NCBI RefSeq assembly: GCF_001677475.2
Contig: NZ_CP015229.1
Source of the DNA: Escherichia coli
GTDB lineage: Bacteria > Pseudomonadota > Gammaproteobacteria > Enterobacterales > Enterobacteriaceae
DNA length: 64,000 bases
Direction: 5' to 3' (one strand)
Shown: piece by piece, positions 8,205 to 8,962 of the stretch
Position numbering within the stretch: position 1 is the first letter of the stretch
How the letters are laid out: every line of letters starts with the position of its first letter
Position numbers and translations under genes: made by a program
The notes under the pieces: model-generated
What the model saw: only the letters and a program-made list of their open reading frames with translations
The model's database searches: none
Told to the model about the DNA's origin: nothing

Positions 8205-8225
8205 GCGATGACCCCAAACGGGGAA

Positions 8226-8609
8226 ATGTATTATCCTGATGCTGTTTATAGTTCAGATTATTCATCGCAAGCAATGCCTGGTGATCGTGAAACAGTAGCA
8301 GGTGCTTCTCACTTGTTTATTCATGAAATGATGCATGTTTGGCAATATCAGAAAGGGTATGCAGTTAAGTTGCGTGGTTTATTTTCCTGGGCGGCAAATT
8401 ATCATTACGATCTTAATTTACAGTCAATTTCTTCTTATTCCATGGAACAACAAGCATCTATAGTTGCTGATTATTGGCTATTAATTAACTATGGACTGGT
8501 GGCTGATTTGGCAAATGTTAACTATGTAGGTGATACAACTGAATCAGTGAACACTCTATCGGAAAAATACAAAAAGGTGCTTAATTTTTTTCCTGCGGGT
8601 GTCATATGA
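8226..8609 (+). CDS. HExxH-motif protein (candidate zinc metallopeptidase-like toxin domain or small metalloprotein); possibly truncated or polar-affected by the Mu insertion
   Basis: Track ORF 8208..8609 begins 4 bp after the Mu terminus; second ATG at 8226 has a GGGGAA RBS-like sequence; HEMMH motif at residues about 38-42; AT-rich codon usage; 4-bp overlap with the downstream lipoprotein gene. Confidence 0.5.
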   Translation: MYYPDAVYSSDYSSQAMPGDRETVAGASHLFIHEMMHVWQYQKGYAVKLRGLFSWAANYHYDLNLQSISSYSMEQQASIVADYWLLINYGLVADLANVNYVGDTTESVNTLSEKYKKVLNFFPAGVI

Positions 8610-8962
8610 AGAGATTCTTTTTGTTTTTCTTTTTGTCGGGATGCACTGTTGGTGATTATGTTCGCCCATTGTTACCCGGTAGTGTATATTTGCAAGACGG
8701 ACAGATTTGTTCAAAACCAGACGATGGGAATATTATTTCAAATTATGTTTTATATGAAGGTAAATATGGCAATGCAATAAAGTTGAAAAGAGTGACAGGT
8801 CAGTTCGAACCCGTATGTATTGATATAAGTGAGCTATCTTCAGATGTTATGTATATCGGGAAATATATGCTCTCTTCCGGAAGTAAAAAAGAATACTATG
8901 GTTTTAGCATAATTAGAACCGGAGAACGTATTTTAAGACTTGATGATAATCATATCAAATAA
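8606..8962 (+). CDS. Small lipoprotein (candidate periplasmic immunity/inhibitor protein)
   Basis: 118 aa; N-terminus MKRFFLFFFLSGC has signal peptide plus lipobox (LSGC); ATGA overlap with upstream HExxH gene. Confidence 0.55.
   Translation: MKRFFLFFFLSGCTVGDYVRPLLPGSVYLQDGQICSKPDDGNIISNYVLYEGKYGNAIKLKRVTGQFEPVCIDISELSSDVMYIGKYMLSSGSKKEYYGFSIIRTGERILRLDDNHIK

Follow-up and report, generated by a model that had tools for sequence, protein, structure and literature searches.

Our analysis makes it very probable that the two small overlapping genes next to the Mu-like prophage derive from a bicistronic T6SS effector-immunity pair, in which Mu here cuts the effector gene and leaves the immunity gene intact. 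The window, by which we mean the whole stretch of Escherichia coli DNA that was analyzed (64,000 nt of contig NZ_CP015229.1), carries the following features around this pair.

7258-7443 and 7352-8089, + strand: com and mom, respectively, the last genes of the Mu-like prophage (88% identity to Mu/SfMu com/mom)
8110..8129, + strand: GC-rich hairpin after mom, terminator-like on the minus strand (simple scan)
8140..8204, no strand assigned: Mu right end (attR), terminal ...CGCCGCTTCA (alignment to Mu continues up to the final base of its genome, 36717)
8205..8609, + strand: 5'-truncated effector gene remnant, codons 43-176 of 176, Tpe/VgrG2b-C-ter family (junction, homology, fold)
8606..8962, + strand: intact immunity lipoprotein gene, 118 aa (ORF, NF045617 relatives, alignment)
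9184..11178, + strand: vgrG, T6SS spike protein, 664 aa (TIGR03361, 557 bits)
11229..11681, + strand: DcrB/DUF1795-like protein, 150 aa, in the vgrG-rhs interval (RefSeq name, and PF08786 on identical or homologous loci)
11700..16415, + strand: Rhs-family toxin, 1571 aa (YD repeats and Rhs-associated core)

A preliminary description of this DNA had reported two AT-rich ORFs, overlapping by 4 bp and lying between the Mu end and vgrG, and these points hold: the GC content of the pair is 35.9% against 50.5% for the window, the effector stop and the lipoprotein start share the ATGA at 8606-8609, and Mu ends upstream of the pair while vgrG lies downstream. It had also reported a protein of about 130 aa with an HEMMH motif. 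There is indeed an ORF of 133 aa (8208-8609) with HEMMH codons at 8322-8336, but it is not a complete gene; the Mu end had been noticed, but that Mu lies inside a gene had been overlooked.

The match to phage Mu runs through com, mom and the phage end at 88% identity and extends to Mu position 36717, aligned to position 8204 of the window; the region thus ends as a Mu right end does, with a terminal match through the last base and with com and mom before it. The Pfam families Zn_ribbon_Com and Mom are recorded on identical contigs. Similarity to the uninterrupted locus begins directly after the Mu end, at nt 127 of a 531-nt gene. Our reference for this uninterrupted locus (L001) is E. coli 2014C-3338, where the order is pqqU-yncE-ansP, the pair, vgrG and rhs, and where the first gene of the pair encodes 176 aa (WP_000058705.1). 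In the junction alignment, the window reads ...CGCCGCTTCA followed directly by GCGATGACC, and L001 reads ...GGGGAAAGAACA followed by the same GCGATGACC; the breakpoint between Mu and host is ambiguous by 2 nt, as the terminal CA fits the host sequence too. Because Mu ends at 8204 and similarity to the intact gene starts there, the segment 8205-8609 is a 5'-truncated remnant, and the window retains only codons 43-176 of the 176.

The first 5 bp after the Mu end, GCGAT at 8205-8209, are a candidate target-site duplication. Mu prefers targets of the form N-Y-G/C-R-N, which GCGAT fits. The other Mu junction lies outside the window, and the missing 126 nt together with the 5-bp duplication would be expected there: The predicted left junction would read ...GGGGAAAGAACAGCGAT (gene nt 1-131, with the GCGAT duplication at its end) abutting the Mu attL TG.... 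A search for the presumed protein that would join the 5' gene fragment to Mu's own left-end sequence found none on record.

On at least 16 draft contigs, which come from several assemblies, the identical 133-aa product is encoded with Com, Mom and the Mu end upstream; GCA_016118575.1 and GCA_002516285.1 are examples of Mu-bearing isolates. An assembly artefact was considered as the origin of the junction and ruled out, as the same junction is found on 16 independent draft contigs. Among complete E. coli genomes, the exact Mu/host junction was found in none, and the matches begin on the host side only; the 5' part of the effector gene is carried by 229 genomes. Since no complete genome has the junction and 229 genomes have the 5' part, the Mu-interrupted state is a minority, lineage-specific condition.

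The preliminary description had been unable to place the first protein in any well-known family, and had ranked the pair as the least recognizable of its candidates. Neither judgment survives: a phmmer search of the PDB singled out one strong match, 6H56 (E=1.9e-20), which spans residues 4-138 of the full-length protein, and the family is described and experimentally studied (PMC6899460, PMC12992299). The title of 6H56 is “Effector domain of Pseudomonas aeruginosa VgrG2b,” and a reciprocal search from the 6H56 fragment led back to free-standing proteins of this kind, about 170 aa long. Structure prediction had been proposed for both proteins of the pair. For the full-length effector, the AlphaFold2 model, built with 31 homologues, has a pLDDT of 92.8 and a pTM of 0.90, and in a Foldseek search of the PDB its only significant match was again 6H56 (E=4e-9, probability 1.00, TM 0.65). 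In the alignment of the 31 homologues, VgrG2b included, H82, E83, H86 and E123 are invariant, and all four are kept in the window remnant, where the codon for the third-ligand glutamate E123 lies at 8445-8447. E123 is aligned to the glutamate of the VgrG2b “IEQQ,” taken to be E983, the third zinc ligand in the crystal structure. With an HExxH motif and a downstream glutamate as third ligand, the full-length protein (176 aa, 20.0 kDa), as judged from its sequence and its modeled fold, belongs to the Tpe/VgrG2b-C-ter family of zinc metallopeptidases, that is, the thermolysin-like gluzincins. The family was recognized solely via the PDB sequence search. Pfam and NCBIfam gave only noise on the 133-aa remnant (DUF6782 at E=0.19, Fibro_Slime at E=0.07) and no match on the full-length 176 aa, in the case of Pfam even at E<=10; DUF4157, which is frequent in the family and not strictly defining, was likewise not matched by the full-length effector in Pfam. 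Relatives at the genus level are 45-50% identical to the E. coli effector.

These assignments also show what has been lost. The Mu deletion covers codons 1-42, which hold strands 3-5 and 28-30, the helix 8-18, and the residues R4, E10, V27 and Q38, likewise invariant in the 31-homologue alignment; the near-invariant T7, G9, I22, Y24 and Y34 also fall within the deleted segment. The window does not encode a complete catalytic domain, and the remnant, even if translated, would lack part of the conserved core as seen in the alignment and the model. Insertion of a Mu-like prophage at codon 43 of the effector gene took away its promoter and Shine-Dalgarno sequence as well as residues 1-42; because all of these are missing, the effector in the window is an inactivated pseudogene. 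Since the HExxH ORF is a truncated pseudogene, a toxicity assay on the 130-aa product, as had been suggested, would probe a fragment. The suggested module of a toxin and an immunity lipoprotein was therefore right in kind, as the VgrG2b homology, the NF045617 kinship of the lipoprotein and the linkage to vgrG attest, but its effector is a pseudogene here. Other E. coli alleles of the same effector are likewise truncated or carry deletions.

One could read the 133-aa ORF instead as a complete, functional small HExxH protein that starts at the ATG at 8208 and is coupled to the lipoprotein. The frame is open from that ATG, it retains HEMMH, E123 and the ATGA overlap, and gene callers annotate the 133-aa protein on the 16 contigs. 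However, this ATG is the internal Met44, only 3 nt from the Mu terminus, and no Shine-Dalgarno-like sequence precedes it; the native one, GGGGAAAGGA, is present in L001, and together with the promoter region of the effector gene it belongs to the far side of the prophage. A simple scan of 7900-9300 found no sigma-70-like promoter on the + strand, a weak test with which expression remains compatible. Moreover, the uninterrupted homologues all have about 165-200 aa and a conserved N-terminus, as opposed to 133 aa, and the 43 residues missing from a product that begins at Met44 comprise 4 positions that are invariant, 5 that are nearly so, one helix and two of the three core strands. We regard the reading of the ORF as an intact small protein as largely refuted and its probability as minimal; a truncated pseudogene is what the evidence favors. 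In addition, the hairpin at 8110..8129 is a palindrome after which a T-rich run comes on the plus strand. Although a simple scan is weak evidence, this hairpin may block read-through from mom into the effector remnant.

The second gene is intact. As had been described, it encodes a 118-aa lipoprotein with an LSGC lipobox: the ORF at 8606-8962 has the N-terminus MKRFFLFFFLSGC, and the lipobox L-S-G-C codons lie at 8633-8644. The profile searches that had been proposed were informative in part: NF045617, “putative T6SS immunity periplasmic lipoprotein,” is found on the window lipoprotein with E=2.3e-7 and 30.9 bits, under its curated cutoff of 43 bits, but Pfam gave no match for either protein of the pair, and for the lipoprotein this includes DUF7480. 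Its relatives in other genera score higher in several cases. In every retrieved locus of the distant homologues (Citrobacter, Dryocola, Atlantibacter, Enterobacter), a small ORF overlaps the effector stop. In Citrobacter farmeri this ORF has 126 aa, 47% identity to the window lipoprotein and 31 bits with NF045617; the same-position ORFs of Dryocola (117 aa, 52 bits), Atlantibacter (117 aa, 58 bits) and Enterobacter hormaechei (154 aa, 102 bits, with DUF7480) pass the cutoff. When the relatives are aligned with the window lipoprotein, the lipobox cysteine, a GD motif and two further cysteines are invariant, and a profile built from the same-position relatives and the window lipoprotein finds 94 members among 1.8 billion representatives searched. 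Because the same-position relatives pass the cutoff and the joint profile finds these 94 representatives, we treat the window lipoprotein, at the level of sequence, as a divergent member of the NF045617/DUF7480 immunity family.

In the alignment of 48 lipoprotein sequences, C13, C35 and C71 are the only invariant columns, C13 being the lipobox cysteine. The protein thus combines a Sec/SPII signal and a lipobox cysteine with conserved cysteines in its mature part, and this invariance fits lipid attachment and one structural disulfide, which C35 and C71 probably form. Thr at position +2 suggests sorting of the lipoprotein to the outer membrane. Structure prediction gives a small all-beta domain (pLDDT 82), and the fold matches are uncharacterized lipoproteins of its own family, followed by generic Ig/FN3-like sandwiches. 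The cysteine pattern echoes the Cys/DsbA dependence reported for PA0261, the immunity protein of VgrG2b. Homology between the lipoprotein and PA0261 was sought and came out negative in each search: PA0261 (L008:492-989) has no match to NF045617, Pfam shows no link between the two, the lipoprotein family profile (A3) aligns to it in hhalign with a probability of 0.7%, and it is absent among the top AFDB50 fold matches of the lipoprotein. The equivalence of the two proteins rests on genomic position and compartment, not on demonstrable homology.

The distribution of the pair bears on its nature. Among 5426 complete E. coli genomes, 226 carry the 979-nt stretch 8205-9183 at >=90% identity, in every case on the chromosome. 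Since conservation of the pair extends over these 226 genomes and across Enterobacterales, the two ORFs are not chance ORFs. Co-occurrence with vgrG in other genomes, which the preliminary description had proposed to check, was confirmed: in 194 of the 226 genomes vgrG and the DcrB-like gene follow the pair without a break, counted as a match to >=80% of the stretch made up of all four genes, and in the remaining genomes, EPEC O127:H6 among them, vgrG is truncated. The order in C. farmeri is the pair, vgrG, the DcrB-like gene and prePAAR-PAAR-Rhs, and a further vgrG fragment immediately precedes the pair; in Enterobacter the pair is embedded in a T6SS core cluster, by tssB, tssC and tssK, and in Atlantibacter it adjoins hcp-Tlde1. 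The pair of the window is thus followed by vgrG, DcrB-like and rhs genes, T6SS genes are adjacent to it in three other genera, and an overlapping ORF for an envelope protein, a lipoprotein, follows the effector both here and in the loci of four genera.

A different reading would take the pair as a housekeeping or envelope protease-inhibitor module unrelated to T6SS delivery. Homologues exist in Sphingomonadaceae, where T6SS is rare (PMC6899460), and the Dryocola locus (L006) has no T6SS gene within 4 kb. Yet the pair forms an AT-rich accessory island that only 4% of E. coli genomes carry, and in E. coli, Citrobacter, Enterobacter and Atlantibacter its neighbors are consistently vgrG, hcp or T6SS core genes. 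The effector lacks a signal peptide, its N-terminus showing no hydrophobic signal sequence when judged by eye, although its relatives act in the periplasm, and deletion of the corresponding pair in S. arizonae makes cells sensitive to killing by the parent strain (PMC12992299). A match of the first protein to a housekeeping family had been named beforehand as a sign against an effector, and none was found; the closest family is a T6SS effector domain. We consider a housekeeping role very unlikely and keep to the T6SS effector-immunity pair.

The family itself has been published. The C-terminal domain of VgrG2b (VgrG2b C-ter) was described as a thermolysin-like gluzincin (Wood et al. 2019, PMC6899460); its toxicity requires both a periplasmic location and an intact HExxH, the domain causes mid-cell blebbing and lysis, and its substrate is still to be identified (PMC6899460). 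PA0261, encoded directly downstream of VgrG2b, is periplasmic and DsbA-dependent, and binds and neutralizes the toxin (PMC6899460). In many Enterobacteriaceae the domain occurs as a free-standing putative cargo effector, e.g., S. arizonae SARI_02727, and the downstream immunity proteins are predicted lipoproteins, of which SARI_02726 fractionates with the outer membrane (PMC6899460). The same study equates the VgrG2b C-ter family with Tpe1-Tpi1 of A. baylyi (PMC6899460). SARI_02727/SARI_02726 was validated in 2026 by competition assays and by periplasmic expression and rescue assays, and SARI_02726 was recorded as DUF7480 and as the NCBIfam “putative T6SS immunity lipoprotein” (PMC12992299). 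T6SS-dependent secretion and HExxH-dependent periplasmic toxicity have been shown only for VgrG2b, ACIAD0053 and SARI_02727. The reading as effector and immunity protein is right in kind, the family is already published, and a free-standing enterobacterial member is validated.

Compared with VgrG2b/PA0261, the E. coli pair has a homologous catalytic domain (E=2e-20, 33-40% identity) of the same fold, with HExxH and a downstream Glu ligand in both; both are T6SS-linked, and a small, envelope-targeted, cysteine-containing ORF lies immediately downstream in both. In contrast to VgrG2b, where the domain is fused to the VgrG spike, the E. coli effector is a free-standing 176-aa cargo protein, its immunity protein is a lipoprotein without detectable sequence or fold similarity to PA0261, and in the window it is cut by Mu. 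The resemblance to SARI_02727/SARI_02726 lies in a free-standing enterobacterial effector of about 180 aa followed by an overlapping NF045617 lipoprotein immunity gene. However, the SARI pair belongs to the core cluster of SPI-20 and the E. coli pair to an orphan vgrG-rhs island by ansP, and SARI_02726 has 154 aa, whereas the E. coli lipoprotein has 118 aa, falls below the NF045617 cutoff and has no DUF7480 match. Tpe1-Tpi1 of A. baylyi (ACIAD0053/ACIAD0054; Ringel et al. 2017, in the account given by PMC6899460) likewise includes a cargo-type metallopeptidase of the same family, and the Acinetobacter homologues share 33-36% identity with the E. coli effector (alignment A2); unlike the E. coli immunity protein, Tpi1 is, in that account, no lipoprotein, a transmembrane helix holding it in the inner membrane. 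The E. coli pair is an uncharacterized member of the family with a somewhat divergent immunity protein, and the only feature specific to the window is the Mu disruption.

We suggest a plausible course of action for the intact pair by analogy with VgrG2b C-ter, Tpe1 and SARI_02727. The intact effector would be T6SS cargo, exported and active in the periplasm of the target, where it would cause lysis; it would be loaded on the neighboring VgrG or, at 20 kDa, possibly in Hcp. The lipoprotein would face the periplasm and, as its characterized counterparts do, could neutralize the toxin through binding. It might be thought that the intact effector acts mainly or also against eukaryotic cells, as was proposed for VgrG2b, which would promote the internalization of bacteria via the gamma-tubulin ring complex. 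The C-terminal region of VgrG2b has been implicated in epithelial cell uptake (PMC4453011), and many of the genomes that carry the pair are APEC, ETEC or EPEC isolates. The invariable linkage to an immunity gene nevertheless favors an antibacterial role, and a host-directed activity has been shown for none of the free-standing enterobacterial members. For the window the question is irrelevant, the effector being truncated there, and for the intact effector we hold an anti-eukaryotic role to be improbable; an antibacterial T6SS effector is the reading we retain.

In the window strain, the immunity gene would be left as an orphan. Because its native upstream transcription and its translational coupling to the effector would have been lost, whether the orphan immunity gene is expressed in this strain is uncertain. 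An intact immunity gene beside an inactivated effector recalls the orphan immunity genes and decayed effectors of other T6SS/Rhs islands; here, in contrast, the cause is a datable Mu prophage insertion, not recombination or point decay. We may speculate that such a lineage is disarmed but protected, its effector being out of action and its orphan lipoprotein being expressed from an internal or Mu-end promoter and selected against the toxin of its kin. We put this forward tentatively, as the less probable course. If it were true, the Mu-bearing lineage, with its at least 16 draft contigs, would be a ready system for the study of immunity-only cheaters in E. coli T6SS competition. Relative to the intact locus, the effector remnant has one synonymous and one non-synonymous change (L170F), and the lipoprotein has an identical protein sequence and one synonymous nucleotide change; these counts are too few for any inference on selection.

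Nothing in the pair is mechanistically new, and the value of these results lies mainly in annotation. WP_000058705.1 and WP_000819258.1, which now go under “hypothetical protein” or the misleading “type IV secretion protein Rhs,” could be given names that identify them as a Tpe/VgrG2b-type T6SS metallopeptidase effector and the immunity lipoprotein that goes with it, and the annotated 133-aa product of the Mu lineage deserves a label as a Mu-disrupted pseudogene. With a natural knock-out lineage and several other decayed alleles at hand, the E. coli allele could also be a convenient genetic system for the question of the substrate.

Downstream of vgrG, the C-terminal tip of the Rhs toxin has no family in Pfam and is uncharacterized. 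The gene at 11229..11681 was without a match in the NCBIfam search; in E. coli loci with the pair, the RefSeq name for the gene at this position is “DcrB-related protein.” From its position between vgrG and rhs, the DcrB-like protein may be a loading adaptor for the Rhs toxin.

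The identical junction between the Mu-like prophage and the truncated effector gene turns up in several assemblies (L014-L017, e.g., GCA_016118575.1, GCA_018682865.1 and GCA_002516285.1), on 16 draft contigs in all, and the Mu insertion therefore serves as a lineage marker. The contigs of a second group (L011-L013), which carry a slightly different effector allele, start precisely at CA|GCGATG, the pattern that assembly breaks at the same Mu end would leave.

Comparison of the E. coli sequences (related proteins P0022, P0018/P0019 and P0025/P0026; L001 6980-8008) shows that this effector has decayed recurrently and independently. 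One allele, present on 49 contigs, has the C-terminal end ...SISSYSM and stops just short of the zinc ligand E123; a separate allele has an in-frame deletion of 12 aa (YWLLINYGLVAD), and several further E. coli forms are shorter. In some genomes, among them those of strain 2014C-3338, which carries the uninterrupted locus L001, and of EPEC O127:H6, the vgrG adjoining the effector has become a pseudogene.

The effectors of the E. coli/Citrobacter clade carry an 8-residue insertion just N-terminal of the HExxH helix (columns 101-108 of the effector homologue alignment A2; approximately 8274-8309 in the window), and the lipoproteins of this clade are those that fall under the NF045617 cutoff and lack DUF7480. 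The effectors and lipoproteins of this clade may form a co-diverged specificity subclade. Because a vgrG fragment of 326 aa lies immediately 5' of the effector-immunity pair in Citrobacter farmeri (L002 4000-4980), we suggest that the pair at first followed a vgrG of its own and that it is the Rhs toxin which the downstream vgrG serves. Homologues of the effector (WP_000058705.1) are widely annotated as "type IV secretion protein Rhs." This legacy name is wrong on both counts, type IV and Rhs, and conceals the family from keyword searches.

The prophage upstream of the effector remnant is only Mu-like: its com/mom/right-end region is ~88% identical to Mu and SfMu, while 6000-7268, which takes in the last part of an Ala/Gln-rich tail-fibre-like ORF of 763 aa together with a DUF4376-type ORF of 196 aa (region 4254-7135), gave no match in the phage collection. 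Our terminator scan found 5 hairpin-plus-T sites against 0.6 expected; two of them lie inside the CGAAA-type repeats of the Mu right end (8143-8185), its transposase-binding region, and these two are not genuine terminators.

The 1571-aa Rhs protein has a C-terminal tip (15960-16415) that matched no recognisable Pfam toxin family, with only Ntox47 appearing (E=0.13). A 142-aa ORF that overlaps and follows this tip (16327-16755), without a match in the NCBIfam search, is a candidate immunity gene. Further along lie the following features.

Features downstream of rhs
17576-18712, intact ISAs1-family transposase gene
19890-20372, second, fragmentary ISAs1 sequence
29741-33538, minus strand, narG-type gene
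41119-43530, fdnG-type gene

The ISAs1 arrangement downstream of rhs resembles that of the K-12 rhsE region, and the narG-type and fdnG-type genes locate the island to the ansP...narZ...fdnG part of the chromosome.
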